From the NCBI GenBank assembly GCA_963705305.1, contig OY970067.1, positions 4,384,001-4,448,000 of the forward strand: a stretch of DNA of 64,000 nucleotides, written 5' to 3'. The position numbers and the translations under genes were made by a program. The notes under the pieces were generated by a model that worked only from the letters and a program-made list of their open reading frames with translations, was not told the origin of the DNA and ran no database searches. The DNA is from an uncultured Methylomirabilota bacterium. GTDB taxonomy: Bacteria > Methylomirabilota > Methylomirabilia > Methylomirabilales > 2-02-FULL-66-22. Positions 1 to 56,024 of this stretch are shown in pieces (the stretch's first letter is position 1; each line of letters starts with the position of its first letter).

Positions 1-401
1 CGAGCCCGCAGCCGGCTGAAGGCCTGCCTCAAGAAGCCATCGCGATCAAACAGGATCCGCGCATCCTCGAGCATATCCAGGTACAGCAAGCTCCCCCGCT
101 CTACCTCGGCGGGCGTCTTGAACACGGGGCTTACCGTTGTGGCCACACCGGCCACGCGGGCCTCCGCCAGCGCGGAGCCGAGGGCTTTCTCCACCATGGC
201 AAACTCGGCCACGCGCGCCATCCTTCCGGCCGGCAGCCGTGCGGCCACGATCAGCACGTCCAGGTCCGAGTCCGGCCGCGGCGTCCCCCGCCCGACCGAT
301 CCGAAGACCGCAAGGGCCACCAGGCGGTCGCCGTAGTGCTGCCGGCAGGCGGCAAGGAGGTCGCAGCAAAGCCGGTCAAATTGAGAGGCCAGCGAGATCA
401 T
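1..401 (-). CDS. Minimal nucleotidyltransferase (MNT) antitoxin-like protein, runs off window start
   Basis: Manual translation MISLASQFDRL...LAVFGSVGRGTPRPDSDLDVLIV has the GSx10DxD motif; ATG at 401 with GAGG upstream; not in the ORF track. Confidence 0.85.
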   Translation of the reverse strand, partial: MISLASQFDRLCCDLLAACRQHYGDRLVALAVFGSVGRGTPRPDSDLDVLIVAARLPAGRMARVAEFAMVEKALGSALAEARVAGVATTVSPVFKTPAEVERGSLLYLDMLEDARILFDRDGFLRQAFSRLRA

Positions 402-426
402 CACGCGTCCTCACCATCTGTGCTGA

Positions 427-455
427 GGGGACGTTGTAACCTTAATTACCTTATT
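427..455. repeat. Array site copy 1 (GGGGACGTTGTAACCTTAATTACCTTATT)
   Basis: Near-identical to 6766-6795 and 7812-7840. Confidence 0.9.
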
Positions 456-465
456 GCCAAGGGAT

Positions 466-494
466 GGGGGACGTTGCGACATTATTGACTTTAT
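466..494. repeat. Array site copy 2 (GGGGGACGTTGCGACATTATTGACTTTAT)
   Basis: Near-identical to 8688-8716 and to the IS110-split copy. Confidence 0.9.
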
Positions 495-548
495 CGAGCA
501 TTTCGAAGTTCGAAGTTCAGAATTGCCCCCCCCAGCCTTCCATCATGC

Positions 549-971
549 CTACGGCCGCTCCAGCGCGCGCAGCACTTCCCTTTTGAACGCTTCGACCTCC
601 GGCCACTTGCGCGTGGCCACCATGAAGACGATTTGATTGTCCACCACCCCGTACTCGTGCACGAGGATGTTGCGAAACCTTCTCATCGCGCGAATCGTGC
701 CCGCGACCTCCGGTGAGATGATGTGCGCATCTTCCAATCTGGCGAACAGGTCCTCCTCCTCGCCGGGCAGGCCCAGGCGCAACCCGGCAACGAGCAGGTT
801 GCATATATCCAGGACACACTCAACGGAGATCTGGAGGAGGCGCTCGACCGCGCGCCGCGTTGCAGGGTTCCCCATGTACCCAGAATAGTCTGCGGGGAGG
901 ACCGCCTTGAGCTCGGCCTCGTAGCCGTGCAGCTCGTCCAGCTTTGCCAGGACGCGGTCACGATCCAGCAT
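549..971 (-). CDS. hepT: HEPN/DUF86 toxin (HepT-like RNase)
   Basis: MLDRDRVLAKL...AVERLLQISVECVLD...RNILVHEY: RxxxxH motif plus following Tyr; overlaps upstream MNT. Confidence 0.9.
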   Translation of the reverse strand: MLDRDRVLAKLDELHGYEAELKAVLPADYSGYMGNPATRRAVERLLQISVECVLDICNLLVAGLRLGLPGEEEDLFARLEDAHIISPEVAGTIRAMRRFRNILVHEYGVVDNQIVFMVATRKWPEVEAFKREVLRALERP

Positions 972-1365
972 GCGCCACCTGCTCGAGGTAGTAGCGATAC
1001 CTATGGCGGAAATCCTCAAACGCCTTCGCCGTCCGGTACGCCAACTCGTACAGGGCCTCCTCGTCCCGGCTGTACAGTACCCGGCCCTCCCGGAGAACGC
1101 GACGGCGAATGTAGAGCGGAAGCTGCTGGAAGACGCGAATGTCGAATCCTTCGGGTGTGGTCGCCAAGTACTCCAAACGCACCTCGGCTGCCGCAGCCCC
1201 CGTCCCACTGGTCCGGCATGGGTCGAGGACCAGGCAGACGTCCACATCCGAGCGGGGCCCCTGCTCTCCCCGGACACGGCTTCCGAAGAGCACCACCGCC
1301 AACAGGCGCGTGTCCGCTGCCGCTTTTTTGAGAAGGTTGTCGATCGAGGCGCTGTCAGACGTCAT
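958..1365 (-). CDS. mntA: MNT antitoxin (MntA-like)
   Basis: LFGSRVRGEQGPRSDVDV motif; coupled to HEPN gene. Confidence 0.9.
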   Translation of the reverse strand: MTSDSASIDNLLKKAAADTRLLAVVLFGSRVRGEQGPRSDVDVCLVLDPCRTSGTGAAAAEVRLEYLATTPEGFDIRVFQQLPLYIRRRVLREGRVLYSRDEEALYELAYRTAKAFEDFRHRYRYYLEQVAHAGS

Positions 1366-1489
1366 CTGGACCAGATAGGGGACCCGGCCGTTTCTGCGCT
1401 GTCAAGGCACATTCCTCCTCGCGATGCCGAGTCCTGAACGCATCTCACACCTGCTGCCTGCCGTCGTTCCCCCGGGACCGCTCCCGGAT

Positions 1490-1680
1490 GGTCTCTCACG
1501 CCCCACCGTAGTGGTCGCATCCGGCCTGCTCGCTGCCACCCGAGCGGCCTACCCGGCCTCGTCCGGGCTGCTGAGAGCGGGAGCGGCGCGCCAGGGTCCC
1601 CCGGCGGTCCCACCGGGCCGCCACGTTGCATGAATCGCGCTGCCAGCTCCCCGGGGAAGACAGACGCTGTCCCGCCGGCC
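1490..1680 (-). ncRNA. Predicted IS110 bridge/seek RNA with target- and donor-binding loops
   Basis: Two stem/internal-loop/stem domains; guides GCAACGT and GGGGGAC match the target site; GGCCGGGT and ACTAC match the element end junction. Confidence 0.8.
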
Positions 1681-1683
1681 GGC

Positions 1684-2889
1684 TCAGCGGACCTGCCGCT
1701 GGAGCCCGCCCGTCCGGCGTGGGTCGTACGGGGTCCCGCTCCGCCACACGCCCCAGACGACCCGGAGCACTTTCGCCGCCAGTTCGACGATCGCCTTGAA
1801 GCCAGCGAAGCGGTCCCCCTGGCGCTTCGCTTTCAAGGCGGCGAGCCGGGCCCGCCCCGCGGCGGTCCGCGCCAGTCCCAGCGCCGCGTGGTACAGCGCC
1901 CAACGCAGAAGGCTGCGCCCGCACTTGGAGATTCGCGCCTGCCCCGCGAACTGCCCGGATTGCACCCGCACGATGTCCAGCCCCGCGAGCTTCCGGAGCT
2001 GGGAGAACTTCGTGAACCAGGCGATGTCCCCGATCTCGGCCAGGAGGATCGCGGCCACGGTCGGCCCGACCCCCGGGATCGTCCGGAGGAGCGCGTAGGC
2101 CGGGAGCCGCTCGGCGAGGGGCGTCAGGGCCTGCTCGACCGCGGCGGTGCGGGCCTGAACAGCATCGACCTGGGCCCCGAGGTCCGCACAGGCCGTGGCG
2201 AGCCCGACCGGCAGCCGTCCCTTCGCCACCGCTGGGCGCCCGGGGGCCGCCGGCTCCCAGGCCTGGAGCACCGCCGGCAGCTCCGCCCGCAGGCGGTTGG
2301 GCAGGGGCTCCCCCATCGGCCCGAGGGCCGGGCGGAGGGTCGTGCGCCAGCGCGCCTTGCAGGCCGCCAGCTCGCTCCGGGCCCGGCGGAGGCACTTGAC
2401 CAAGTGCCGCAACTCGACGCGGGGGCCATCGGGCCGGCTGTAGAACAGCACCTTCCCCTGTTCGAGGAGGTCGGCGCAGTTGGCGGCGTCCTTCCGGTCG
2501 CCCTTGTCCCAGGTCCCGTCCTGGGTCCGGCGGTTCCAGTAGGCCACGCTGCTGGAGAACAGGACGACGTCGGCGCCCTGCGTCTCCAGGAACACCGCGA
2601 GGGCCTGGTGGTAGGTCCCCGTGGGCTCGAGGCCACAGACCACCTCGCGGCACCCGGTGCTCCGCTGGGCCTGCTGGATCCGCGCCCAGAGCTGGGCGAA
2701 GCCCCGGGTGGTGTTCGGGATCGTGAGGGTGGGCACGACCACCCGGGTGTGGGCCTGCCGGAGGTGCACCACGTGTTCGACTTGGGCGACGTCGATCCCG
2801 ACCAGGAGGCGCTGGCGGTTGATGCGTAAGGTGGCCTTCAGCTCCCGGAACCGCTTGACACGCGTGGCATTGTCTCGCATCGTAGCCAT
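1684..2889 (-). CDS. IS110-family transposase (bridge recombinase)
   Basis: RuvC-like DEDD residues (GIDVA, LEPTG, KGDRKDA), IPGVGP, C-terminal VQSGQ...ISKCG..LRWAL. Confidence 0.95.
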   Translation of the reverse strand: MATMRDNATRVKRFRELKATLRINRQRLLVGIDVAQVEHVVHLRQAHTRVVVPTLTIPNTTRGFAQLWARIQQAQRSTGCREVVCGLEPTGTYHQALAVFLETQGADVVLFSSSVAYWNRRTQDGTWDKGDRKDAANCADLLEQGKVLFYSRPDGPRVELRHLVKCLRRARSELAACKARWRTTLRPALGPMGEPLPNRLRAELPAVLQAWEPAAPGRPAVAKGRLPVGLATACADLGAQVDAVQARTAAVEQALTPLAERLPAYALLRTIPGVGPTVAAILLAEIGDIAWFTKFSQLRKLAGLDIVRVQSGQFAGQARISKCGRSLLRWALYHAALGLARTAAGRARLAALKAKRQGDRFAGFKAIVELAAKVLRVVWGVWRSGTPYDPRRTGGLQRQVR

Positions 2890-3275
2890 GGGGTTCTTCC
2901 TCCTCTGTACGGGGTGAGTGGATGGCTCTCTGCACACCCCTACCAATAGCGAGGAAGAACCCCTTTTGGAACCTGCCATTTTCACCAGAAGGGGCCCAGA
3001 CTGTGGGAGTCTAGTCGCTGGTACCTGGTTCATGCGGGTAATACTACGCTGCGACATTATTGACCGTATTCTGGAGCATAGGGCGCAGGGCATGGCGAGG
3101 GCCTACGGCCCGAGAGAGGCGCGAGGCGGCCGGAGCGATCGCAAGCGCACCATTTCGAAGATCGAAATTGAAAGAGCTTGTCGTGGCGATCTTTGCGTGA
3201 GGCATCGGGCCCGTTCCTCATGCCACTTGGCACGAGAACCACGGAGGCGGCTGCGACGCCCAGGGCCCGACGCAT

Positions 3276-3533
3276 TCAGGCTGTCCTACGGGTAAGTGGG
3301 TATGCGTGGCGGACACCGATAAGCCGATCGATCGAAAGATCCTCATCGAGTGCCGGCCAGTGGATACCATACCCGACCGCTGAAATCTCGTAGTTCGCCC
3401 GTTGCTCTGGTGTCGCGTTGGCAAGCTGTGGAGAGTGCCGCGCGATGTCCACCTCGTAATCCTTCCCATCAACGCGGAGCCGCAGAATTGTCCCCTGCAA
3501 GCTGGCCACACTCACTTCGTGGGCCTTATCCAT
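3276..3533 (-). CDS. DUF2442-like protein (putative TA component)
   Basis: SPQLANATPEQRANYEIS..GYGIHWPALDEDLSID signature. Confidence 0.85.
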   Translation of the reverse strand: MDKAHEVSVASLQGTILRLRVDGKDYEVDIARHSPQLANATPEQRANYEISAVGYGIHWPALDEDLSIDRLIGVRHAYPLTRRTA

Positions 3534-3783
3534 TTCGCTGCTCCTGAAATCGCTGCCATTCAGCGACAATGTATTCGAAGTGCGCAAAGATTATTCGCCT
3601 AACAGTTCGTTTATCGGCTGAACTCAAGTTGTACGCGTGCGCCTCGATCGCCTCATACCCGTCTGCGTCCAACCAATATTTCGCCTCAGCATTTCCTTTG
3701 CGGCAATGGACGTGCATCGGCTCATCCCGCTCATTCGCGTAAAAGAAAAACCGCCAGCCGAGGATGAGCAGGATTGTCGGCAC
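3526..3783 (-). CDS. DUF4160-like protein (putative TA component)
   Basis: PTIL..GWRFFFYANE..EPMHVH...AEAKYWL signature; overlaps the DUF2442-like gene. Confidence 0.85.
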   Translation of the reverse strand: MPTILLILGWRFFFYANERDEPMHVHCRKGNAEAKYWLDADGYEAIEAHAYNLSSADKRTVRRIIFAHFEYIVAEWQRFQEQRNG

Positions 3784-3810
3784 CTTACTCGCACGCAATT
3801 CGGTGATGGT

Positions 3811-3945
3811 TTACCACTTTATTGGCCACGGGGAAAGAAAAGGCCGCAGGAGCCCCTCTCGAATCAGCACCTCTGCCGCCCGGCGGGCTTCGTCTCCCCG
3901 CGCGAGTTCCCGCTGGATGGCGCCCCATCGGTCCCCGGGACTCAC
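3811..3945 (-). pseudogene. Truncated HEPN-domain gene remnant
   Basis: After the MNT stop reads AIQRELARGDEARRAAEVLIREGLL (HEPN-like N-terminal helix) then degenerates; out of frame with the GTGA overlap start. Confidence 0.55.
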
Positions 3946-4277
3946 ACGGCCACCCCGTCACGCTCGATCTCGCGCGCCAGTCTGCGCCCACTCTGCCTGG
4001 GGGCCGCGAAGCCTTGCCGCGAAAGCACGAGAGGCGAGATGAGCACGTCGGTCTGCAGGAACACCTCGTAGGCCAGGTCGAAGATCCGCCGGCGAACCGG
4101 GAGGTCATCCGAGGCCACCACGACCAGCACATCCACATCCGAATCCGGTCCCCCCTCGCCGCGTGCCCGGGAGCCGAACACGGTGCCGGCCGCCTCCTGG
4201 TCGGATAGCTCACGGCGAACCCGCCCCACGAAACCCTGTACGGCCGCCCACTCTTCCCCGGTCAGCGACTGGCCCAT
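3942..4277 (-). CDS. MNT-domain protein
   Basis: VFGSRARGEGGPDSDVDVLVV...EIERDGVAV. Confidence 0.9.
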   Translation of the reverse strand: MGQSLTGEEWAAVQGFVGRVRRELSDQEAAGTVFGSRARGEGGPDSDVDVLVVVASDDLPVRRRIFDLAYEVFLQTDVLISPLVLSRQGFAAPRQSGRRLAREIERDGVAV

Positions 4278-4381
4278 AGCCTGTAGCCCCTCTTGCGCTC
4301 AAACGACCGGTGGCCCCTCGCTATTATAGCCATAATCCGGGGTGGGCGAAAGATCGGGAAGTAGGAAGCGAATTTTGGTCG

Positions 4382-5455
4382 CTAACATGCCACACGCTCA
4401 ACGGCGGCCGCATCCGCGTCGACCATCATCCACACCAGTTCTTCGAACCCAACTCGCGGGGCCCACCCAAGGACTCGTTTGGCCTTCGAGGCATCGCCCA
4501 AAAGAAAATCTACTTCTGTCGGGCGGAAGTAGCGCGGGTTGATTTCGATCAGGGTACGGCCGTCGGGGCCAACGGCCTTCTCCTCCACGCCCACCCCTTC
4601 CCACCGCAGCGGGATGCCGGCGCGGGCAAAGGCAAGCTCGCAGAACCCCCGCACGGAGTGCGCCTCGCCTGTGGCGATGACGTAGTCGTCCGGCTCGGGC
4701 GCCTGGAGCATCCTCCACATGGCCTCGACGTAGTCGCCCGCGAACCCCCAATCCCGCTTGGCGTCCAGGTTCCCGAGAGCCAGCCGGTCCTGGAGCCCCG
4801 CCTTGATCCGCGCCACCGAGCGGGTGATCTTCCGGGTGACGAATGCCTCGCCCCGCCGGGGGCTCTCGTGGTTGAAGAGGATCCCGTTGACCGCGAACAT
4901 CCCGTACGCCTCCCGATAGTTCCGGGTGATATAAAAGGCGTAGGCCTTGGCGGCGGCGTAGGGGCTGCGGGGGTAGAACGGCGTCGTCTCGCGCTGGGGC
5001 GTCTCCACCACCTTCCCGTACAGCTCTGACGAGGAGGCCTGGTAGAAGCGGGCGTTCAGATCCAGCTCGCGCATCGCCTCCAGCAGCCAGATCGTACTGA
5101 CCCCCGTCACCTCCGCGGTGTACTCGGGCACCTCGAAGGAGACCTTGACGTGGGACTGGGCCCCCAGATTGTAGATCTCGTCCGGCCGGACCAGCTTCAG
5201 CAGCCGGTTCAGCGACGAGGCGTCGTTCAGATCCCCGTACGCAAGATGCAACCGGACCTCGCGGATGGCGGGATCCTGGTACAGGTGGTCGATCCGCTCC
5301 CGGTTGAAGGACGAGGAGCGGCGCACCACCCCCCACACCTCGTACCCCTTGGCAAGCAGCAGCTCCGCCAGGTACGACCCGTCCTGCCCGGTGATGCCGG
5401 TGATCAACGCTCTCCTACCGCTCATTGGAAGATGCCCGCTCACTGGTTTATCCAT
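4382..5455 (-). CDS. gmd: GDP-mannose 4,6-dehydratase
   Basis: [43 protein letters not shown]. Confidence 0.97.
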
Positions 5456-5488
5456 CCTGCGTTACTCATTACACCGTGAAGGGGTCAG

Positions 5489-5552
5489 CCTCCGGCCCGG
5501 GTTCCACCCCGTAGGGGCTCCACCCCGGAGGGAGGGCCTACGGCCCGGAGGG
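5489..5552. repeat. Palindromic CCTCCGG...CCGGAGG element (family G); other copies 14686-14717, 16334-16396, 20789-20851, 22941-23019, 31736-31802, 32932-32995
   Basis: Seven near-identical copies with CCTCCGG/CCGGAGG ends and internal CGTAGG/CCTACG. Confidence 0.9.
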
Positions 5553-5756
5553 TGGTCAGTGGTCCTGCAATCCACCTTCCTATTCGACTTTCCATTGCGC
5601 CCCTTGCGTGAGAAAAGCCCGACTCCGGTCTCACGCCAAGATCGCAAAGCTCGCCAAGAAGGGCCCTCGTAAATCTCGAACACAACTGTGAACGTTGTTG
5701 ACTGTGTTGACTCGCGATTTGGAGGCAACGCCGTCGCCGTCCAACGACTGCACGAG

Positions 5757-6173
5757 TCAAAGGAGGCTGGCCACGGTGCCGGCGAAGGCCCGCAGGTCCT
5801 CCAGGCTCCGGTGCAGGACATCGTACACCTGCCCATAGTCGATCTTCCAGTACACGTGCACCAGGAGGTTGCGGAACCGCGCCATCTGCTGGAGGCGTCC
5901 GGCCAAGTCCGCCGGCAGGAGACCAGCGTCCTTCAGGATGGCGAAGCACTCCGCGTATTCCTCGGGGACCTTCTGCAGGCGTCGCGCGGAGACGTGGTAG
6001 CAGAGCGCCAGCGCGGCCTCGATCGCCACCAGAAGCCGATAGCATGCCAGATCCAGCGTGTCCTGGTCCGCCAGGAACCGCTCGCGCGGCAGACCGCGAA
6101 GTCGCTCCAGGCGCTGCACCGACTCCACGATCTCGGCGCAGCGCGCCCGCACGAGATCCGGACTGAGGTTCAT
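5757..6173 (-). CDS. hepT: HEPN/DUF86 toxin
   Basis: YRLLVAIEAA...RFRNLLVHVY. Confidence 0.9.
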   Translation of the reverse strand: MNLSPDLVRARCAEIVESVQRLERLRGLPRERFLADQDTLDLACYRLLVAIEAALALCYHVSARRLQKVPEEYAECFAILKDAGLLPADLAGRLQQMARFRNLLVHVYWKIDYGQVYDVLHRSLEDLRAFAGTVASLL

Positions 6174-6592
6174 GCGGCAAAGGACTCCACGGTTGCCTGC
6201 CGCAGCAGCGGCGCGATGTCCAGATAGCGCGAGGCGGTGCGTTCGACCACCTCTGCCAGAACGGCCTCGTCCCGGCACAGCACGAGCCTGCCCCGCAGGA
6301 CATGGTACAGGAACGACAGCGGGGCCGCGTTCACGACGCGGACATCCAGCAGAACCCGCAGGAGACGCTGCAGCCGCGCGCCCAGGTCCAGCTCGTAGTC
6401 CATCGGGCTCCTGCCGGCCAGCAGCTCTGGCCTCACCCACACCGCCACATCAACGTCGCGGAACGGGAGGGGCTCCACAAACGAGCCGTACAGGTAGGCG
6501 AAGGACACGCCAGGATCGTCCTCCAGCGCAGAAGCCAAGCGCTCTCGGATCTCTCTTCGCCGGTCCTCGTCCATGTGATGCAGCCGGGTCAT
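6170..6592 (-). CDS. mntA: MNT antitoxin
   Basis: YLYGSFVEPLPFRDVDVAV; ATGA overlap with HEPN gene. Confidence 0.88.
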   Translation of the reverse strand: MTRLHHMDEDRRREIRERLASALEDDPGVSFAYLYGSFVEPLPFRDVDVAVWVRPELLAGRSPMDYELDLGARLQRLLRVLLDVRVVNAAPLSFLYHVLRGRLVLCRDEAVLAEVVERTASRYLDIAPLLRQATVESFAA

Positions 6593-6765
6593 CTCAACTC
6601 CATACGTCGAGCGTCGATCGAATCCCCCGTTTGCACATTCTGCAGCTTGCGCCTTCCATGGCCATCCTCTATGCGTCCAGGTCCCGGTAACATCCGATTC
6701 ACTTGACCCTCACGCGTTGGCGCTCCATCTCACCCGCTCCCCGTTTCCCCGGCTCGCCTCAATCT

Positions 6766-6795
6766 GGGGGACGTTGTAACCTTAATTACCTTTTT
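6766..6795. repeat. Array site copy 4
   Basis: GGGGGACGTTGTAACCTTAATTACCTTTTT. Confidence 0.9.
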
Positions 6796-6934
6796 GCGAA
6801 GCGCACGGGGCAAAGCGCAGAGGGCATGGCGCAAAAACCGGTGGTCAGAGGTCGGAACGTCGGTGGTCAGGAGTCAGCTTGCGTCTGAAGGCTGACACCT
6901 GATTCCTGGAACTGGCGATCTCTGGATAGAAACA

Positions 6935-7360
6935 TCAAATGAGAGACCTGATGGCTTGACAAAGCTTCCTGAAGGAGGGCTCAGACTCACGGAGGAATCG
7001 GTCGATGGATCGCCAGCGGACATCCTGATATTGATGCGCCAGGATGTTTCTCAGGCCCGCCCAGCGCGAAATATCCTCCCCGAATTCCGGCTCGAAATAT
7101 GGGAGCGAGCCGAGCTCCCTCAGTGCTTCCCTATAGGTGGATGGTATGGTCCGCCCGTCGCATACCAAAAGGACCTTGGCGATGTCGATGGCACAGTTCA
7201 CCAGATTTTCGATCCACCGCTCCAGATTCCTCCGCAGATCCCGATCCGACTGGTAGGCTTTCCAATCCATGCCCGCGAACCGAGGAAAATCTGCCAGCTC
7301 CGCTTCCAGAAAGTCCACGTACCGGATCAGGCGCTCCCGATCCTCAGGCAGCAGCGGCAT
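6935..7360 (-). CDS. hepT: HEPN/DUF86 toxin
   Basis: LERWIENLVNCAIDIA...LRNILAHQY. Confidence 0.9.
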   Translation of the reverse strand: MPLLPEDRERLIRYVDFLEAELADFPRFAGMDWKAYQSDRDLRRNLERWIENLVNCAIDIAKVLLVCDGRTIPSTYREALRELGSLPYFEPEFGEDISRWAGLRNILAHQYQDVRWRSIDRFLRESEPSFRKLCQAIRSLI

Positions 7361-7787
7361 GCTTCCGCAGCTCCTTGAGCCTCCAGAAGCTCTCGGACCA
7401 CTCGCGGAAATCCGCGGCTTCGGAGCTGGTGCGCACCAGGAAGTCAAGATACAGTCCGCGATCCTTGATTACGAGCGAAACGCCCCGCAGAGCCGCCTCG
7501 GCCACCCTCGCGGGCGCCCGATTGAGGACGATCAGGTCCACCTCTCGTCCAACGATCTCCTCGATGCCGGCGCAGAGTGCCTCTTCTCTTTCCGGATCCT
7601 CAAAAAGCCCCTCCTCTCTCTCAGCGGAGGGAGATCGGAGGTACACGGCGACATCGAGATCCGACTCCACGCCCTCGCGATCCTTCACCCAAGAGCCAAA
7701 CAGGAACGCCATGGCTACGTCTTCCTGCCGTTCGAGCAGGCGACTAAGCTCTGAAATGGCCCGGGACTTTTCGTTCGAGGAAATCAT
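7344..7787 (-). CDS. mntA: MNT antitoxin
   Basis: FLFGSWVKDREGVESDLDVAVY...VDLIVLNRAP. Confidence 0.9.
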   Translation of the reverse strand: MISSNEKSRAISELSRLLERQEDVAMAFLFGSWVKDREGVESDLDVAVYLRSPSAEREEGLFEDPEREEALCAGIEEIVGREVDLIVLNRAPARVAEAALRGVSLVIKDRGLYLDFLVRTSSEAADFREWSESFWRLKELRKHAAAA

Positions 7788-7811
7788 GATTTGGGGGACC
7801 CGTGGAACCTA

Positions 7812-7840
7812 GGGGACGTTGTAACATTAATTACTTTATG
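7812..7840. repeat. Array site copy 5 (plus partial GGGGGAC at 7793-7799)
   Basis: GGGGACGTTGTAACATTAATTACTTTATG. Confidence 0.9.
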
Positions 7841-7896
7841 CCGAACGGCACAGAGCAGAGAGCAGAAGGAGATTCGAAATTCGAAATTGAATACCT

Positions 7897-8346
7897 TCAC
7901 GGTTCGTCACTCGAGAGGATTCCCATCTCATCGCGTGCCTGGAAGAACTCCCGAACGGCGCTGACGATCCGGCCCGCCGCCGCCAGCGCCCGCTCCGCTG
8001 TTTGCCGGTCATAGAATTGGTGAGGGTACCCCGCGGGCAGCCCGTTCGGATAGCGGGATGGAATGTAATGCAGGTCCAGCTCACGTGCGAAATCCAGCAG
8101 GCCTGTCACCACATCCGCCATCTTGGCCGCCTCCTGAACCATTTCCACCAGCGAATGGCTCAAGAGCGCCTCCCTTCTCGCCCCTTGATAGTACAGGAAG
8201 GACTTCAAGGCCTTTTCCCCGGCCTGCTGCGCAAGGAAACAGGCCGTATCGTGGAAGCCTCCCTCGATATTCCAGGCCACCGCCTTCAGGTCGAAGGTCG
8301 CCTGGTGAAACCAGCGCCGGGCCTCGGCCTGTGCCTTACCGGCCAT
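7897..8346 (-). CDS. HEPN-domain protein
   Basis: WFHQA..DL...ACFLAQQAGEKALK...HSL...YIPSRYP. Confidence 0.9.
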   Translation of the reverse strand: MAGKAQAEARRWFHQATFDLKAVAWNIEGGFHDTACFLAQQAGEKALKSFLYYQGARREALLSHSLVEMVQEAAKMADVVTGLLDFARELDLHYIPSRYPNGLPAGYPHQFYDRQTAERALAAAGRIVSAVREFFQARDEMGILSSDEP

Positions 8347-8671
8347 GGACCAGGACCCCCTCTTCCTGGATCATCTCCACAAACGCGTTCCCTTCCTCGC
8401 GCATCCGCCCGAACTCCTCCGGGGTGTACACGAGAATGTCCACGCCTCCCACCCCCGCCGGCAGGAGGCCTGCGACCTTCCGCAATCGCTCGAAGAAGGA
8501 ATCCAACGTCCGCTTGACAATCACGAGATCGAGGTCGCTCAGGATATCCGCCTCTCCCCGCGCGTAGGATCCGAACACGTAGATCCGATCGGCACCATAC
8601 GGCGTGAGGGCCTCGAGGAGACGGGCGACCTTCGGAGTATTGCGGATGTCGTTCACGCTCTCAGGACACAT
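8336..8671 (-). CDS. MNT-domain protein
   Basis: VFGSYARGEADILSDLDLVIV...VDILVYTPEEF. Confidence 0.9.
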   Translation of the reverse strand: MCPESVNDIRNTPKVARLLEALTPYGADRIYVFGSYARGEADILSDLDLVIVKRTLDSFFERLRKVAGLLPAGVGGVDILVYTPEEFGRMREEGNAFVEMIQEEGVLVHGR

Positions 8672-8687
8672 CGTTCATCATGGCTTT

Positions 8688-8716
8688 GGGGGACGTAGCG
8701 ACATTATTGACTTTAT
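8688..8716. repeat. Array site copy 6
   Basis: GGGGGACGTAGCGACATTATTGACTTTAT. Confidence 0.9.
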
Positions 8717-8882
8717 TGTGGGGCACAGGGCAGAGGGCACAGAGCATAGCGCGAAGGGCGAAGGGAAAGTCGGAATTGGAATTTCGAAGTTCGAAATGAA
8801 GAACTCTTGCCTCGCGCCAAGATCGCCAAGACAAGCATCCCAGAGGTTCGGGCCCCTGATCCGATATGTGGGACATGGAGGC

Positions 8883-9266
8883 TCACCGCTCGCGCGACTC
8901 CAGTCGCGTGACCCGCTCGTTCAAGGAGGCGTAGTTGCCTTCCAGCTCCTGGAGCCGTTGTTCGAGCTGAGCGTAGGAGAAGCGGATGGCCGCACGCGTC
9001 TCGGCGAACCCCTCCTCCACCTTCCGCTCCAGCCGGTCGAGTCGTTGATTCGTCTCGGCGAGGCCCTCAGCGAGCTGGCGCACGTCATCACGCACTGCCT
9101 CGACGAGGACCCCCATGTGCCGGCGGGTTTCCTCCTGCTGCGCCCGGACCTCTTCCTTTGCGGCCACCTGTTCGAACCGGCGATCCACCTGTTCGAACCG
9201 GCTGTCCACTTCGTCGAACTTCCGCCCGATGAACTCGGTCAGCCGGCTGTACTCATCATTCGTCAT
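8883..9266 (-). CDS. Coiled-coil hypothetical protein
   Basis: Heptad repeats (RKFDEVD SRFEQVD RRFEQVA); GGAG RBS. Confidence 0.75.
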   Translation of the reverse strand: MTNDEYSRLTEFIGRKFDEVDSRFEQVDRRFEQVAAKEEVRAQQEETRRHMGVLVEAVRDDVRQLAEGLAETNQRLDRLERKVEEGFAETRAAIRFSYAQLEQRLQELEGNYASLNERVTRLESRER

Positions 9267-9387
9267 CGGCTACTCCCGATCGCACAGGGCATGGGGCAGA
9301 GGGCAAAGGGCATAGCGCGAAGGGCAGAGAGCGCGGACCACGGGACCACTGACCACCGACTCCCGGCACTTAGGGGATTACCCCGCA

Positions 9388-9801
9388 CTAGATCCATCCC
9401 ATCACGGCCGTCTTGAACCGGGTGAAATCACCGAGGTGCTCCCGGAGGGTGCCCAGGACCATGCCGGGGTCTATCCGGGCATACTCGTGAACGATCAGGT
9501 TGCGGAATCCGCTCATCCGAATCATGGCATCCCGTTGGGTTGAGTCCAGGAGGCCAGCCTCCGCCAGGACGGTGAAGGATTCGGCATGGGTCGCAGGCAC
9601 CCGCAGTCTTCGGTCCGCAATGACGTGGTTGGCGATGTCAAGGCAGACCTCGATGGCCAACTGGAGGGTCCGCTCTACAATGCGCTGGGTCCTCCAATCC
9701 TTGCGGTACTCCTCGACCGTGACATTCCGGTACTCCGATGCCTGATCCACGTACTGATCCAGGTCCGCCAGCTTCCGGAGGATCAGGTCCCGGTCAACCA
9801 C
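9388..9801 (-). CDS. hepT: HEPN/DUF86 toxin
   Basis: VERTLQLAIEVCLDIANH...GFRNLIVHEY. Confidence 0.92.
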   Translation of the reverse strand: MVDRDLILRKLADLDQYVDQASEYRNVTVEEYRKDWRTQRIVERTLQLAIEVCLDIANHVIADRRLRVPATHAESFTVLAEAGLLDSTQRDAMIRMSGFRNLIVHEYARIDPGMVLGTLREHLGDFTRFKTAVMGWI

Positions 9802-10216
9802 CGGCGAACCTCCGGGCCAGGAGCCGGTGCTCAAACGCGCGGAAGTCGAAAAACTCGCGCAGTGCCAGGGACTCGAACCGGTGGCGGCAGAATGGATTGC
9901 GGTCGCAGATGACCTCGCGGTTCAGGAGGATCCGTCCTACCAGCGCCGATGGCGCCGTGTTCAGGACGACCAAGTCCACCTCGTCCGTCCCCAGATGCGC
10001 GGTGATCGCCCCGACGATCTCGAACCGCTGCTCCGCTGCGTCCACTGCCGGATCAAGGTACACCGCCACGTCGACATCGCTGAGCGGGCCGACCCGGCCG
10101 CGGGCCGCGCCCCCAAAGAGGTACCCGAACACGACACCGGGGCACGTCTCCAGCACCCGGCCGAGGGTGCTCAGCCGCTCGCGGATGTTTGCAGGCAGAG
10201 GCTTCTCTCGGATCAT
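9794..10216 (-). CDS. mntA: MNT antitoxin
   Basis: YLFGGAARGRVGPLSDVDVAVY...VDLVVLNTAP. Confidence 0.88.
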   Translation of the reverse strand: MIREKPLPANIRERLSTLGRVLETCPGVVFGYLFGGAARGRVGPLSDVDVAVYLDPAVDAAEQRFEIVGAITAHLGTDEVDLVVLNTAPSALVGRILLNREVICDRNPFCRHRFESLALREFFDFRAFEHRLLARRFAGG

Positions 10217-10450
10217 GATACCCTTGCGGCGCAGGGCAGAGGGCAAAGAGCAAAGACCAGGGATCAGGGGTCAGGAATCAGTGGTCAGAGGTCAGGATGT
10301 CAGGCGTCAGCCTCCAGACAGGGTTGCTCTACTTTGCGTGCTTTGCGTGAGGAGAGCTCGGACCTAGTCTCACGCTCAGATCGCTAAGCTCGCCAAGAAG
10401 GCCCCTTTTCACTTTCGAAGTTCGAATTTCGCATTTCGAATTTGCTCTCG

Positions 10451-11194
10451 CTACTTGTTATGTTCCTCCTCACCCCGCCCCTGATTCTGCGGGTGCTGCG
10501 CTTCGTGGCCCTGCGGCCTCTGCTCGTGCTGCTGCCCGCGGACGCTCTCCTGCGGCTGTCTCGGCGGCTGACCCTGAGGCGGCCTCTGCTGCTCTCGCTG
10601 CTGGACCTGGGGCGGCCGCTGGTGCTGCTGCGGCTCGGGCCGCACCTGAGGCTGCCGGACCTCGGGCTGCGGCTGGTACTGGCGCTGCCGCTGCTGTTGC
10701 ACGGCCTTCCGCTCTTGCGGCGATGGAGGACGATAGCCCTGGACGCCCCATGTCCCCTGCTTTTCCCAATGCTGCGTCGTATGCCAGTTCTTCCAGTTCT
10801 GCTGAAGCTGCCCGTACGGAATCCGCTCGTAATTCCAGCGGTGTCCCTCCCAGGCATGGTCCCTGTAGAAGGCCCGCCAATTGGGGTCGACGCCATAATA
10901 GAAGCTGGGGACACGCTTGTAGTAATGCCAGCCCCGGTCGTAGTAGTGCGAGCGGTACCACCGGCCATCCCACATACGCCACCACCACCCGTTCCAGAAG
11001 AACACGTCCGCGGCGATCTCGGGGACAACGTACACATCGTTCGCCCCGGGAAGCACGATGACGCTCGGGGGCGCCGCAAACGTGATGGCCGGCGGCAGGG
11101 GGATATTCACGGTGACCGACACCTGCGCACCGGCGGACAGCGGAACAGTAACTGCCACCGCCAAGAGCAATGCTCCAAACACAACCTTGTTCAT
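10451..11194 (-). CDS. Secreted W/Y-rich, Q/P-tailed hypothetical protein
   Basis: Signal-peptide-like N-terminus, IPLPPAI, FFWNGWWWR..GRWYRS, low-complexity Gln-rich tail. Confidence 0.75.
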   Translation of the reverse strand: MNKVVFGALLLAVAVTVPLSAGAQVSVTVNIPLPPAITFAAPPSVIVLPGANDVYVVPEIAADVFFWNGWWWRMWDGRWYRSHYYDRGWHYYKRVPSFYYGVDPNWRAFYRDHAWEGHRWNYERIPYGQLQQNWKNWHTTQHWEKQGTWGVQGYRPPSPQERKAVQQQRQRQYQPQPEVRQPQVRPEPQQHQRPPQVQQREQQRPPQGQPPRQPQESVRGQQHEQRPQGHEAQHPQNQGRGEEEHNK

Positions 11195-11579
11195 GCTGGT
11201 GACTCCCTTGTCATTGGCAACCTAGGAACATAGGCGAGGAACACTGCCTCACGCCAAGATCGCCAAGCACGCCAAGAAGAACCTTCCTACTATTCGAATT
11301 CCCGGACCGAATCTGGTCTCACGCAAAGATCGCCAAGATCGCAAAGGAGAACCCTTCAGTTTCGAAATTCGAACTTCGAAATTCGAATTTTCCCCGGCAA
11401 CCTTTGCGGCTTTGCGTGAAAAATTCGGGCCGTGTCCCACGCCGGCCTCGCCGCACCGCGTCGATGGGGGTCAGGCCTTGATAATTTGCTTTCTCGATTG
11501 CGTTCCGCGAGCGGGTGAGAGCCAGCCAATACGGCTCAAGAGATCGGGTAGGCCACGGAACACAGAGGGAAATCCGCAT

Positions 11580-11978
11580 CTAGGAAGAACCGAGCCGTCC
11601 CTGGATCGATGCGAGCAGACGATCCATCACCGTCCGATACTCGGACAGTTTTCGATGAATGGACGCGGCGACGGCCTCGATGTACGTGTGGGCAGTCAGG
11701 TTCCGGTCGTCCGTCATCTCCAGACACAACTCCGCATCATCGACCGTCAGGAGACCGGTCTTTAAGGCTTCCCGAAAGCACTGCTTGGGGGAATTGCAGA
11801 CGACGCCTTCCCGCACTTCGAGGTACGCCTTGAGCGCCTACCAGACGCTCTCGAACGTGTATTCGAAGCGCTGGATCGAGGCGTCGCGAACAATCACGCT
11901 GAACGGCAATCCCAGCGCCTCGGCCAGCGAGGCCAGCGCCTTCTGGGCGGCAGTCAGCCTGACCGCTAATTGCTCCAC
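11580..11978 (-). pseudogene. HI0074-type nucleotidyltransferase substrate-binding (HEPN) gene with in-frame TAG
   Basis: RDASIQRFEYTFESVW*ALKAYL...SPKQCFREA...DRNLTAHTY; TAG at 11838-11840. Confidence 0.85.
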
Positions 11979-12268
11979 AGAAGGTTCCCCTGCTCTGTCG
12001 CTCGCCGACGGAGGTCGTCCGAGGCCGTACGCAGCTCTACCAGGTCGACCGTGAGCGGAATATTCGACTCTTCGAGCATTTCGCGGGCAAGACCGAGCCG
12101 CCGGGCGATGTCCGCCGGCGCATCCACGGCGAGGTCAAAATCCGAGGCGGCATGCGGCCGGCCGCCGGCCCTGGATCCGAACAGGTACACGCGGCACTTC
12201 GTGTCCCCCAGACTCCCCCGGAGGATCCGAAGGATCTCTGCGAGGTACCGATCCTGGCGGGAACTCAT
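11966..12268 (-). CDS. MNT-domain protein
   Basis: VYLFGSRAGGRPHAASDFDLAV...LEESNIPLTVDLV. Confidence 0.9.
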   Translation of the reverse strand: MSSRQDRYLAEILRILRGSLGDTKCRVYLFGSRAGGRPHAASDFDLAVDAPADIARRLGLAREMLEESNIPLTVDLVELRTASDDLRRRATEQGNLLWSN

Positions 12269-12480
12269 TTGGGGCACAGGGAGCATAGCGCACGGAGAAT
12301 GGCGCATAGAGTAAAGCCAGGGGGAGAGCTTGGCTCCCTGCTCTGTGCGCTGGGCCCTGTGCGCACCTCTCAGCCCCCGGGCAGGCTTGCGCCCTCTCAG
12401 TTACATAAAGGACATGTAAAGAGGGGGAATCCAGCTAGATTCGAAATTTGAAATCCGAATTTCGAAATCCGAATTTCGAA

Positions 12481-13077
12481 TTAAGATGTAGCTTTCAAAG
12501 TTACGATCTGCTCGCGTGAAGCGCCGCGCGCCACCAGCTCCTGGATCTTGGCCTGCCACCCTTCCTCGGGCTCGAAGGTCGCCACGACGATCCGGTCGAA
12601 CTCCCCCGGGATCAGCTCTTCCAGTCCTCGCACCCGGCGGCCCAGGAACTCCCCGCCCGCCTCGGTCTCAAAAACCTCTCCCAGTTCCAGCCCGCTTTCC
12701 TTGAGGCAGAGATAGGCAACTTCGGCCGCCTCTCCCGTCCCGTAGAAGGCTACTCGCCGGCTCCCGTCATCCCCCAGGGGGGCTAGGGCCCGGCGAAGCT
12801 GCTGGCGAGCCTCCCGATAGCGCTCGAAAGTCCGTGTCATGTAGATATACGTGAGGCGGGACTTTTCCGCCATTCCCTTGGGAGTGAGCAAGTAGTTGAG
12901 GCGATTCGGCCGGACACGCATGATTCGGATAAAGCCTTTCATCGCCAGGCGCCGTAGGTACAGGTTGGCCAGGCTTACCGCCATGCCCAAGTCACCGGCA
13001 AGGTCCCGCTGGGTCAGCCGATTATTCTCGGCGACGGCCTGCAAGATCTCGAGATCCCGGCTGCTCTGCTCCCGCAT
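12481..13077 (-). CDS. MarR/winged-helix regulator of EPS-cluster type
   Basis: TQRDLA...ANLYLRRL..KG...YLLTPKGMAEKSRLT plus C-terminal Rossmann-like YGTGEAAE. Confidence 0.85.
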   Translation of the reverse strand: MREQSSRDLEILQAVAENNRLTQRDLAGDLGMAVSLANLYLRRLAMKGFIRIMRVRPNRLNYLLTPKGMAEKSRLTYIYMTRTFERYREARQQLRRALAPLGDDGSRRVAFYGTGEAAEVAYLCLKESGLELGEVFETEAGGEFLGRRVRGLEELIPGEFDRIVVATFEPEEGWQAKIQELVARGASREQIVTLKATS

Positions 13078-13373
13078 TCCGGCACCCTGAGAAAAAAGAA
13101 CCGGTGAATCGGAGAGACGGTGTAACGGTGAGGCGGCAAATCCCCCTGAGAAACGTGATGGTCGTTACCTCATGACTTTCTCCCCCTCCCCTGAGATCCG
13201 TGTGGGGGCTGAGGGGCCGAAATCAAAGCGATAGAACAGCGACTCAGAGAAGCGGTGAAATCGAGAAGGGACCTCCCAATGTGCGGCCTAGTCGGGCCTG
13301 TTCAAGTCTTGAACGCGAGAGGCAAAACCGCCTGTCGTCACAGCGAGAGGATCAAGAGGCGTTCGGAAAGCGA

Positions 13374-13403
13374 ACGATACATCAACCCCCAAAATCGTGT
13401 CAA
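13374..13403 (-). promoter_or_regulatory. Sigma70-like promoter for MarR/EPS region
   Basis: TTGACA-18 bp-TATCGT. Confidence 0.45.
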
Positions 13404-13574
13404 GAAAAAATGCCGCAGAGGCGCACCGTTGCGCTCGGGCGAGGGGGTGAGGGGGTGGCAAGGCGAGGACGCGAACCGGAGAACCGGAGGGACGGGGGAA
13501 CGGGGAGAGAGCGCAGAGGCGTGGAGGCGCAGGGGGCGAAGAGGCGAAAAGGCAAGGAGGCGCTAAGGGATGAA

Positions 13575-13730
13575 GTGCTGAGAAGTTCATCGGTTGGCAG
13601 GCTTACGCCCTCTCACTTACAGGGAGCATTTCAGGGCTGCCCCCGCAAGGCAGGGAGGCCGTTCACAGGCTGGTGCATTCGCACACAGAAAGGGAGGGAG
13701 ACGCGTAGCTTGCATCTTCCTTCCCGGCGC
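13575..13730. ncRNA. Candidate long-hairpin structured RNA
   Basis: End-to-end imperfect pairing (GTGCTGAGAAG/CTTCCCGGCGC; GCAGGCTTACGC..TCTC/GAGACGCGTAGCTTGC). Confidence 0.35.
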
Positions 13731-14091
13731 GGGGTTGTATACCATAATAAGGAGCAGGGGGCAATTTCGACTTTCGCTAATCGAAATTCCCGCCCCAGGC
13801 CTTCCTCACGCAAAGGTCGCCAAGGGGAGAGGCGGAGTATCGGGGAAACGGAGCCACGGAGAGAAAGCACGGGCAGCGGTTCTCCGGTTCACCGACACCC
13901 CGGTGCTCCGGTTCCCCGTCTCCCGGTGCGGCGATCTTGGCGATCTTAGCGCGAGGACAGGATCGGAGCTTTCCTCACGCAAAGCACGCAAAGGTCGCAA
14001 AGTAGAACAGGGGAAGGTTCGGATCCGGATTCCGAAACAAGAGAAGGCATTTCTTGGCGTGCTTTGCGATCTTAGCGTGAGAACGAAACCA

Positions 14092-14620
14092 CTAGGAGAG
14101 GGCGCGGAAGGCGAGGATGCCGATCAGCTCGGACACCTCCTCGTCAATGGTCTTGCCGGCGTCGGTGCGATAGATGATGTCGGCACACCCGCGGTACAAA
14201 TGTCCCGAGGCGGACCAGATTCTCCGCAGATCCTCTTCCAGGTTCCAGGGAGACGCTCGGATTGACGCGCGGCCGGTCGGCCTGGCGAACCCGGTCGGCC
14301 AGAACCCCAAGCTCTGCATCCAGCAGGACCATAATGCCGGTCCCCCGCAGGGCGTCGGTATTCCAGGCGTACCGGACGGTGCCCCCTCCCAACGCTGCCA
14401 CCACCCGCTCCATCTCGGCAAAGCGCTTGACGATCGAGTATTCCAGCTCGCGGAACGCCAGCCAGCCCTGCTCCCGCACCAGCTCGTGGAAGCTGCGACC
14501 CAGCGCGGAGTCCATCTCGCGGTCGAGATCGTAGAACGGCCGGCCGAGCCGCTGAGCCAGCCGCTTGCCCACGGCAGTCTTGCCGGAACCGATCATCCCG
14601 CTGAAGTAGATGTTGCGCAT
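14092..14620 (-). pseudogene. aroK: Shikimate kinase, frameshifted by a 7-bp duplication
   Basis: GMIGSGKT, DLD, FRELE, LGGG, RP; TTCCAGG x2 at 14236-14249; C-terminus continues in another frame. Confidence 0.85.
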
Positions 14621-53209: not shown

Positions 53210-54680
53210 CATCGCCGCTAAGTTAATTATGTTTCATCTACAACTACGCGGATTTGCTATACTGAGAGCCCATAGACCTTCACATGGAAGGAGGGACTAT
53301 GGGCAGACCGCGCTCGGCCCCGGTGTCGGTCGATATCGTCCGTGTCCTGGAGCTCCTGCGCACCCACATCACCGCCGCTCTCTGCCAGACCGTCTTCGCC
53401 ACCGTCCGCATCCGGGAACGCCAGCGCCGCTGGACGCTGCAAGCGCTCGTGGAGTTCTGGCTCGCCGTGATCCTGCGGGCGCCCCGGGCGTTGAGCCAGG
53501 CCCTGTACGAGACCCTGGAGGGCTCCGAACCGCTCTTCCCGCTGGTCGCAGCCACGCCCGAGGCGTTCTTCCAGCGGTGTCAGACGCTCCGGGTGGCCTT
53601 CTTCGCCGAGGTCTTCACGCGGTTCACGGCCCAACTCCTCGCCGCCGTCCCGCCCCGCTTCTCGGCAGAGGACGCCCCGCTCGCGGCGCGGTTCGCCGCG
53701 GTGTGCGTGGTGGATGGCTCGCGGCTCGCCGCGATTGCCCACCGGTTGAAACTCCTCTGGGCCGAGCGGGCGGTGGTCCTGCCCGGCTGTCTCCTCGCCA
53801 TCTACGACGTGACCCACGGGCTCTGTCGCATGCTCGCCTTCGAGCCGGACGTCGCGGCCCCCGAGCATCCCCGGGGGCTGGCCGCCCTGGCGGCCCTCCC
53901 GCCGGATACGCTGGCCCTGGGCGACCGCCTGTACTGCACGGCCCAGTGGTTCGCCACCCTCACGGCGCAGGGCTGCTGGGGCCTCGCCCGCCGCAATCGG
54001 CGCCTCACGGTGCAGAAGCGCCAGTGCCTCGCGCGGCGGCCCCATGCGGGGGGCTGGCTGGAGGACTGGCTGGTCCGCGCCGGCAAGGCCCCGGGCGTCC
54101 CGGTCCAGCCCCTCCGGTACATTCGCTGGCACCGGGGGGCTACGGTGCGCGTCCTGTGCACCAACGTCCTGGACCCGACCCGGCTGGCCGCCGCCGAGGC
54201 GCTCGCCCTCTACCCCCGCCGGTGGAGCGTGGAACGCCTCTTCTTCGACCTCAAAGAAGTCCTGAACCTGAACCGGGTCTATGCCGCGAACCCGAACGCG
54301 ATCGCAATGCAGGTCTACGCGGCGGGCTGCGTGTACAACGCGCTCCGGGTGGCCCAGGGCGAGGTGGCTGTCGCCGCGGGGCTCGCCCCCGAGGCGATCT
54401 CCCCGGCGAAATTCTTCCCGAAGCTGGCGGCGGCGTGCCACTGCTACGCCCTCTGCGAACTGTGGTTTGCCGAAGCGAAGCGCGCGAACCGCGGGCGGCG
54501 CCTGTGCAAGCCGTCCCTGGAAACCCGCCGCTTTGCCCACGTCGCGCTAGACGCGATCCTCGTCGAGTCGCGGAAGGGTCCGCGGAAGAAACGCCGCTTC
54601 TGCAAGGCCCGCCGGAAGTGGAAGTCGCTGGCACATGTGCCCGGCGGTCGTAAACTGCTCAAATTAACTTAGCGGCGATG
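53210..54680 (+). mobile_element. IS4-family insertion sequence
   Basis: 19-bp perfect IR CATCGCCGCTAAGTTAATT; 11-bp duplication CGCCTTACACT at 53199-53209 and 54681-54691. Confidence 0.95.
53284..54672 (+). CDS. IS4-family DDE transposase
   Basis: VDGS, GDRLY, YPRRWSVERLFFDLK (YREK motif). Confidence 0.93.
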   Translation: MEGGTMGRPRSAPVSVDIVRVLELLRTHITAALCQTVFATVRIRERQRRWTLQALVEFWLAVILRAPRALSQALYETLEGSEPLFPLVAATPEAFFQRCQTLRVAFFAEVFTRFTAQLLAAVPPRFSAEDAPLAARFAAVCVVDGSRLAAIAHRLKLLWAERAVVLPGCLLAIYDVTHGLCRMLAFEPDVAAPEHPRGLAALAALPPDTLALGDRLYCTAQWFATLTAQGCWGLARRNRRLTVQKRQCLARRPHAGGWLEDWLVRAGKAPGVPVQPLRYIRWHRGATVRVLCTNVLDPTRLAAAEALALYPRRWSVERLFFDLKEVLNLNRVYAANPNAIAMQVYAAGCVYNALRVAQGEVAVAAGLAPEAISPAKFFPKLAAACHCYALCELWFAEAKRANRGRRLCKPSLETRRFAHVALDAILVESRKGPRKKRRFCKARRKWKSLAHVPGGRKLLKLT

Positions 54681-55660: not shown

Positions 55661-56024
55661 GACAATTATTGAACCTTGCCTAAGTAATGGGCCATTTGGA
55701 ATCTCAATAATGGAGCCGGGCCGAGGTGCCCTCTCGACGCCTGGCGCCTGCACCCACCCTGCGGGCGGGTACCCGATGCCGGCTCGCCCTTGCTCCGGGT
55801 CGTCGCGCGGGACGCGCTCCTCCACGCCGCCGGTTTGTCGCTGGCAAACCGCGGCGACCGGACCCGGGCTCGCCCGCGGGCGCGGCGCTCCCGGGCACCC
55901 CGGCCCGACTCCAACCGGATCGTCGGATTCCCTTTACAAGGTTCAATGATCTCGCAACGGCCCCTTAGAAAGCGAAGAGAAGCAGTCAGGCTGCTTCCCT
56001 TCGTGTTTTGCGGGCTGGCGCGGG

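Follow-up and report, generated by a model that had tools for sequence, protein, structure and literature searches.

Solo TIRtron ends in a toxin-antitoxin array of a Methylomirabilota bacterium, and the gain and loss of gene units beside them

How does a row of unrelated toxin-antitoxin (TA) genes come to be punctuated by copies of one short, oriented site? The question is raised by a 64,000-nt stretch of the genome of an uncultured Methylomirabilota bacterium (the whole stretch is called the window below), in which a motif of 29 nt recurs, mostly just before MNT genes. An earlier note, made from the letters of the window alone, had proposed that the motif marks an unrecognised system of cassette capture. 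We find that the site is, with near certainty, the terminal inverted repeat (TIR) of elements carrying an HUH/Y1 transposase, the TIRtrons. As to whether lone TIRtron ends took an active part in joining and exchanging gene units, we lean, with reserve, towards the view that they did, the catalysis being argued by analogy with a related enzyme.

Five intact copies of the motif stand in the window at 427, 467, 6767, 7812 and 8689, all on the plus strand (none expected from 100 shuffles), and a sixth is interrupted by an IS110-family element, its left part lying at 1378-1383 and its right part at 3046-3070. The six same-orientation copies listed in the earlier note are therefore real, with the correction that its position 466, which takes in a fifth G, becomes 467. 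Its consensus with sub-repeats also fits, the sub-repeats being a 9-nt tandem unit (mean identity 5.4/9 at an offset of 9 vs 1.8-2.6 at offsets of 7, 8, 10 and 11, over 125 genome copies), and the same can be said of its geometry: the terminus lies 6-26 nt from the MNT starts at 401, 1365, 7787 and 8671, and 175 nt from the one at 6592. As it had stated, the window encodes no matching enzyme, neither a Y1 transposase nor an integrase being present among the 57 window proteins scanned with Pfam. All window copies are solo ends of two subtypes, and the cognate element of each subtype lies elsewhere. The ‘GTAAC’ subtype (427..455, 6767..6795 and 7812..7840) recurs in a metagenome locus (L118), where it forms the downstream TIR of a complete Y1 element; the end at 7812 has a 10-nt outer tail in common with an end at G000:C1:4383320, where G000 is this genome and C1 its contig. 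The ‘GCGAC’ subtype comprises 467..495, in tandem with 427 and matching the TIR on the upstream side of the Y1 element at G000:C1:1466802-1467877, the right remnant of the split end (3046..3070; the left remnant, 1378..1383, is its terminus), and 8689..8717, which together with its inner 7-nt repeats is 94% alike to G000:C1:4383161-4383241. Three related G-run ends had also been listed. One (7793..7799, plus strand) repeats the terminus in short, stuttered form, with 5 nt between it and the MNT start at 7787; another is a second type of end, GGGGTCAG (11466..11490, plus strand; 4 genome copies), for which no cognate transposase was found; the third, 12271, falls in a 7-nt tandem-repeat run and drops out.

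The identity of the site follows from its distribution in the genome. A matrix was built from the five intact window copies and then iterated genome-wide: the first matrix gave 47 matches above 25 bits (0 and 0 in shuffles), and the iterated one 125 matches above 18 bits (2, 0 and 0 in shuffles), 122 of them intergenic according to the rough gene caller that supplied the gene calls. All 125 copies have a GGGGACGTWG core, and the two 9-nt repeats that come after it vary by subtype. Y1/HUH genes whose products have a DnaA-like tail lie between inverted pairs of ends spaced about 1.1 kb. Both ends are present at 11 of the 13 full-length Y1 genes of this genome, the other two having one clear and one worn end, and both TIRs were found at 22 of 26 distinct full-length Y1 genes examined. 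The Y1 proteins match PF01797, and by pattern HUH is found in 13/13 and RYxHLNP in 12/13 of the full-length genes, from which the catalytic tyrosine can be provisionally chosen. Their C-terminal helix-turn-helix (HTH) gave PF08299 matches with E values of 3e-6 and 6e-4 in the two proteins scanned, both below the curated cut-off, and an alignable tail is present in all. The likeness to TIRYT-like HUH Y1 elements, which the earlier note had offered from recall, is thus borne out by the genome-wide scan. The family of ends is lineage-restricted, occurring in 17/20 genomes of the genus vs 3/230 others in the phylum.

What does not hold, at the level of the site, is the term unrecognised. The design was named by Di Nocera et al. 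in 2013 (PMC3733652), and Quentin et al. (2018, PMC6006769) assigned it to TnpA-Y1 subclass 2.1; in the latter survey, TIRYTs form the second largest class of Y1 enzymes, with 14.9% of strains. As in these descriptions, a Y1/HUH gene with a C-terminal DnaA-like HTH lies between TIRs starting with GGGG, and the TIRs also occur as scattered families of repeats, with some copies in dimers or clusters (PMC3733652). The HTH of TIRYTs may be of the Bac_DnaA_C, HTH_23 or HTH_28 type. The published TIR motif, GGGGWSAS (PMC3733652), holds for most TIRtrons, not all; here the ends have instead the core and the two 9-nt repeats. Our main family, GGGGACGT, does not conform to it, whereas the 11466 type does. 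The mismatch does not exclude membership, because PMC3733652 calls other TIRs unrelated. The variable part of the ends is 83% alike between the left and right ends of one element vs 41% between elements, and, over 21 elements with kinship ignored, it tracks the C-terminal 100 columns of the enzyme (rho 0.34, permutation p 0.004) and not the catalytic half (rho 0.05, p 0.37). Since it follows the tail rather than the catalytic half, this suggests that the C-terminal tail reads the 9-nt repeats.

An alternative raised at the outset was that the site serves the TA operons chiefly as a common outward-facing promoter or operator. The position of ends 6-26 nt before four MNT starts, some of them without an evident ribosome-binding site, would suit it, as would the weak -10-like hexamers that may be read on the minus strand. 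However, no consensus promoter was seen at any end, and copies of this motif, arranged as inverted pairs, bracket transposases; genome-wide, it faces gene stops as often as starts. The MNTs of the window are, moreover, only about 28-38% alike in near-full alignments, because of which they are not tandem duplicates. As the primary identity of the site we regard a promoter or operator as very improbable; a secondary promoter role may exist.

The layout also recalls an integron, and one may ask whether the sites are attachment sites of an integron, or of another tyrosine recombinase, acting in trans. The attC pattern is a hairpin of the form RYYYAAC..GTTRRRY. No attC pattern was found in window 1-12500, the folding energy of the motif (-1.8 to -3.9 kcal/mol) is too weak for a stable hairpin, and no Rfam family has a match in the window; these findings agree with the earlier judgement that the site is not attC. 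A frameshifted IntI-type gene does exist in the genome, at 853-854 kb, but it is 3.5 Mb away, is served by attC-like sites of its own and provides the sole TIGR02249 match over cut-off, so that an adjacent IntI is lacking. Given also that the motif is the TIR of Y1 genes, we give this explanation hardly any credence. The distant locus, G000:C1:851269-854377, is a separate, true integron, with an integrase-type gene whose larger piece scores 318 bits with TIGR02249 and attC-like sites at about 851269 and 851892.

If the sites are TIRtron ends, did they shape the DNA around them? Within this genome, the homology of outer flanks stops between -15 and +3 nt from the terminus at 15/42 ends vs 13/159 random intergenic points (p 3e-5), and it resumed within 6 kb in none of 15 comparisons involving 13 ends. 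Ends stand at cuts within capD, gmd, aroC and IS genes. The end at 4326703 is a hybrid, in which the outer flank of one subtype is joined to the inner part of another, the two having about 10 nt in common. Among the differences between two arrays, at 4.32 and 4.335 Mb, that are 99.4-99.9% alike are an MNT-HepT unit flanked by direct ends and an AF2212-like gene with a boundary 4 nt from a terminus. Of 48 pairs of neighbouring ends, 37 share one orientation; replication-strand bias was considered as the source and rejected, the clusters being split 20:20 without replichore bias. A gene lies within 40 nt on the outer side at 42/113 ends vs 8/94 on the inner side (side-by-side counts use 124/125 ends, one match near the contig end being left out). 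The genes near ends numbered 248, of which 231 were run against Pfam and the remaining 17, Y1/IS genes or duplicates, were labelled by similarity.

Sister genomes, about 85-98% alike (among them G001, G003 and G012), supply before and after states. Seven queries were made, hand-picked for ends near TA genes or for paired ends; three showed gains or losses bounded by co-oriented ends. Two were uninformative and not counted: L167, where contigs end, and L188, where synteny breaks at an end and the contig stops before resumption. The stretch from prmA to a WYL gene holds three TA cassettes in G003 and a single one in G012, each headed by an end and about 135 nt; the cassettes differ from one another, yet all are headed by the same end-repeat and have stop codons facing the next end. 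An AsmA gene lies between two co-oriented ends in G012. G001 and G003 lack it there, their empty site being marked by an 11466-type end, and have the gene elsewhere, without ends. An end plus an antitoxin-PIN pair is present in G001 and missing in G012, between 152-nt repeats. At one of the three gain/loss loci, G001 has lost about 575 nt of an ORF6N gene when compared with G012, and the loss stops exactly at an end. In another query, a full element replaces about 46 nt where a terminus was already present. Gain and loss of units between co-oriented ends is thus shown; its agent may be the enzyme or host recombination.

Some of these facts could be read without any capture. In a deletion ratchet, the ends would cause deletions on their outer side that run to features whose loss selection opposes, such as an antitoxin start, and so compact scattered TA pairs into an array. 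The excess of genes close to the outer side of ends is what such a process would give, as is the failure of flank homology to resume. The direct deletion in G001 points the same way, and so do two further findings: in metagenome locus L122, which like L117 shows the geometry of the window, the junction deletes the MNT start codon, and ends occupy the place of the homologs' own -10-like hexamer. The ratchet leaves unexplained, however, an AsmA gene between ends in one sister that is missing, with flanks joined, in two others, and also three different cassettes headed by one end-repeat with their stop codons toward the next end. We consider it rather unlikely.

A somewhat less doubtful alternative, although still an improbable one in our eyes, is that the ends are passive relics: TA pairs would have arrived otherwise, possibly in connection with 7-nt tandem repeats, TIRtron ends or miniature inverted-repeat transposable elements would have hopped into the spacers, and host recombination between direct repeats would have done the rest. 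Many of the observations that weigh against an active role speak for it. The G003/G012 crossover lies inside the 135-nt repeat and not at the terminus, and for this reason RecA-type recombination explains that loss. In G003, G001 and G012, one locus keeps the same MNT and PIN gene order with or without an intervening end. Homologs of the window's first MNT have a terminus within 30 nt of their start in 2/30 loci (this genome and G016), the other 28 being without an end, and homologous TA pairs adjoin gmd or an exopolysaccharide (EPS) regulator in G010, G015 and G020, with 7-nt runs and no ends. Just 16 of 114 patches of 7-nt repeats have an end within 400 nt. A dedicated capture system is also disfavoured by the truncation of genes by ends, and an active role by three more differences between the arrays at 4.32 and 4.335 Mb that are not at ends (a 254-nt insertion, a 47-nt duplication and a replaced stretch near vanZ). 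Of the nine TA units in 1-12.3 kb, five start with no end closer than 30 nt (the DUF4160 pair, the solo MNT at 4277, and the units starting at 6592, 10246 and 12307). Against the passive reading, relics would hardly account for terminus junctions with 0-4 nt of homology (the capD stub, the AF2212 boundary, the ORF6N deletion), for a hybrid between subtypes with so little in common, for strong local co-orientation without replichore bias, or for an AsmA block that entered beside an older end.

The link to TA genes is likewise partial. Counting as a TA neighbour any Pfam TA gene within 900 nt, 34/125 ends have one and 91/125 do not. Seen from the genes, 6/10 MNT and 5/15 PIN genes lie within 900 nt of an end vs 116/1394 small genes, an enrichment whose p-values overstate because matches are clustered; 10/15 PIN genes have no end. 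Cargo other than TA genes also lies between ends, namely the AsmA gene and an adenosine deaminase gene. A search for TA loci using end-adjacent queries was discarded as circular; the 7 loci found by similarity alone had no end within 900 nt. Of what the earlier note had expected, enrichment next to TA genes therefore stands for MNT and PIN genes and fails for most ends. The accretion of cassettes stands as gain or loss at or beside ends in this genome and its sisters, without being specific to TA genes and with imprecise junctions. Strain comparisons gave gain or loss bounded by ends in 3/7 hand-picked cases.

With the active role that we favour, the following course may be envisaged. The two 9-nt repeats are probably the binding site of the DnaA-like tail, and the nuclease would nick a single strand either right at the conserved GGGGAC terminus or a few bases beyond it on the outer side. 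Lone ends, acted on in trans, would serve as one-sided joining sites, the terminus being joined to DNA with a free end; by analogy with TnpA-REP, TIRYT would join it to new DNA preferably near an older end. Units made of an end, an inner spacer of 100-300 nt and the adjacent gene could in this way be copied, inserted or trimmed, the junctions being observed and the catalysis presumed. Where co-oriented ends flank a gene, the unit would be gained or lost by exchange between ends, via the enzyme or via host recombination. TA units would be retained, rather than recognised, in a polysaccharide locus already collecting TA pairs, and would persist because losing them is costly. TnpA-REP forms a 5′-phosphotyrosine link, cleaves and rejoins single-stranded DNA in vitro and has been proposed to sequester flanking genes (PMC3333891). 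No TIRYT activity or role is reported in the portion of the literature examined, a further point on the negative side, and because of this the catalysis is argued by analogy. A stronger version, which we hold to be possible and no better than tentative, would make the ends an HUH analogue of integron att sites: a Y1 enzyme with a subtype-specific HTH would act in trans to insert end-headed cassettes beside resident ends and would thereby build TA and defence arrays in Methylomirabilia-like bacteria, while RNA-guided IS110s would use the sites in the way that IS1111-attC elements use integrons.

IS91 and ISCR elements use an HUH enzyme, one end sets the junction, adjacent genes move along and ends accumulate in direct orientation; their transposase family and end structure are other than those of TIRtrons. 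The one-sided junctions and end-headed units seen here would fit one-ended mobilisation of adjacent DNA from a fixed end, but deletion or host recombination gives similar products. A difference is that the captured blocks here lack a transposase gene. One-ended gene capture of this kind is named in PMC3333891 and PMC7923331. TnpA-REP, or REP-associated tyrosine transposase (RAYT), with its repetitive extragenic palindromes (REPs) and bacterial interspersed mosaic elements (Ton-Hoang et al., PMC3333891), has in common with our case the enzyme superfamily, strand exchange on single-stranded DNA, tandem amplification and the proposed sequestering of genes. In contrast, the ends here are linear repeats, no REPs with a GTAG hairpin were seen, and the Y1 proteins score 48-70 bits with the RAYT model NF047646, below its cut-off of 80. 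Integron arrays and clusters of attC sites lacking integrases (PMC7923331) resemble the locus in that sites of one orientation set apart small cassettes, unrelated to one another and often TA pairs, in the gain and loss of units and in parasitism by the IS110 family; besides the lack of attC and of an adjacent IntI, the boundaries here are imprecise and the cargo lies in either orientation. As for TIRtrons themselves, the accessible text of PMC3733652 and PMC6006769 mentions neither solo co-oriented ends separating genes, nor gain or loss of cargo, nor a link to TA genes (0 matches for toxin or antitoxin in PMC3733652, whose Figure 9 and supplements may list ends of the type seen here). No description of arrays built at solo TIRtron ends was found in the full-text literature searched, as far as it was accessible. 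The kind of element is thus known, and the arrays at solo ends, with their gain and loss in sister genomes, appear to be the new part.

The ends are themselves a target. The element that splits the sixth copy (1384..3045, minus strand) has a transposase at 2889..1684, which scores 210 bits with NF033542 (cut-off 140) and has a Pfam match, and a non-coding region at 1683..1384. This downstream region contains, in order, guide-like stretches that match the two halves of the terminus and the donor, and in the modelled circle junction a -35 hexamer stands 17 nt from a -10-like hexamer. With a DEDD transposase and a guide-bearing non-coding region, the insert has the features of RNA-guided IS110/IS1111 elements, the guide RNA being predicted from sequence. 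Three near-identical copies and one 82% relative occur in the genome, all inserted at one and the same dinucleotide of an end; the junctions found in relatives fit this, L087 being the one exception seen. IS1111-type elements aiming at attC, REP or the inverted repeats of Tn21 and other transposons are known (PMC11187229); they likewise have a downstream non-coding region with guide matches and target another element's repeated site, the difference here being that the target is a TIRtron terminus.

The locus supplies defined substrates, i.e. a conserved terminus, subtype-specific 9-nt repeats and cognate enzymes, and with the natural before and after states of the sister genomes it makes the role of TIRYT directly testable. 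Should the enzyme drive cassette insertion, gene arrays could arise in a way that needs no tyrosine recombinase; should it not, the locus still shows clearly how solo transposon ends reshape a TA island and fall prey to an RNA-guided IS.

The array consists of unrelated MNT-HEPN/HepT pairs and a DUF4160-DUF2442 pair within a polysaccharide locus that carries gmd, an EPS-type MarR, a four-helix-bundle gene and wzz. All on the minus strand and assigned by Pfam, its members are an MNT at 3..404, whose HEPN partner is just outside the window start; MNT-HepT pairs at 549..1365, 5757..6592, 6935..7787 and 9388..10246 (the last with no end at its start); the DUF4160-DUF2442 pair at 3276..3798; a solo MNT at 3942..4277; an MNT-HEPN pair at 7897..8671; and an MNT with an NTase_sub_bind partner of HEPN fold at 11580..12307. 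The gmd gene within the array (4382..5455, minus strand) is intact, and an 87% alike 3′ fragment at G000:C1:4382792-4383140 is cut 25 nt from an end. The order of units is alike in the window and in the prmA array (end, inner spacer, cargo, next end); TA genes are oriented against the ends in the former and with them in the latter. The array also encodes a small coiled-coil protein (8883-9266) and a 247-aa secreted Trp/Gln-rich protein (10451-11194), neither of which has a Pfam match over cut-off.

Several kinds of 7-nt tandem-repeat runs flank TA cassettes at window 499-14100, and also in relatives without ends. One such run lies on the inner side of an end at 8721..8810 (plus strand), and similar ones are at about 499-528, 3075-3175, 6801-6900, 7847-7899, 9273-9370 and 10227-10300. 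Genome-wide, 33/114 patches fall at 4.3-4.5 Mb. The runs follow 10/27 ends of the window subtypes vs 3/97 other ends, and they may belong to a second process; the literature searched on 7-nt repeats beside four-helix-bundle or TA genes held, in its accessible part, nothing relevant.

A few further observations concern the ends elsewhere. A weak end-like sequence at window 55936-55964 (minus strand; 18 bits with the first matrix, lost on iteration) is near an IS4-like DDE transposase at 53284-54672. The single sequencing run with this strain gave short contigs at about 4x depth and repeat-type joints only. In viral contigs, 64 single loose-pattern matches were treated as chance, having no Y1 or TA match and a 9-nt unit identity of 3.4/9. 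A stuttered outer tail and terminus precede full elements at G000:C1:770502-770660, 2525600 and 739500 and in L171, L172 and L215, which suggests repeated cut-and-join at one end; stuttered termini look frequent to the eye but were dropped as strong evidence, their number being 13 vs 7 and 6 in control windows (of 124). The adenosine deaminase gene lies between two same-subtype direct ends beside a full TIRtron (G000:C1:1465626-1467877, L019), in the geometry of the TA units; alaX and adenosine deaminase lie apart in all 7 relatives listed as having the two genes, which is weak evidence because neighbours vary among these relatives. A DSBA-like gene has an end about 25-45 nt from its start both in this genome (226527-227324) and in G013 (L178), the subtypes being different. 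Group II intron reverse transcriptases adjoin ends of one subtype (L022:164-1465 and L036:4108-5409), and a two-ended miniature element of about 210 nt is present in several copies (G000:C1:3156913, 4911108, 4919454, 1132773 and 356566).

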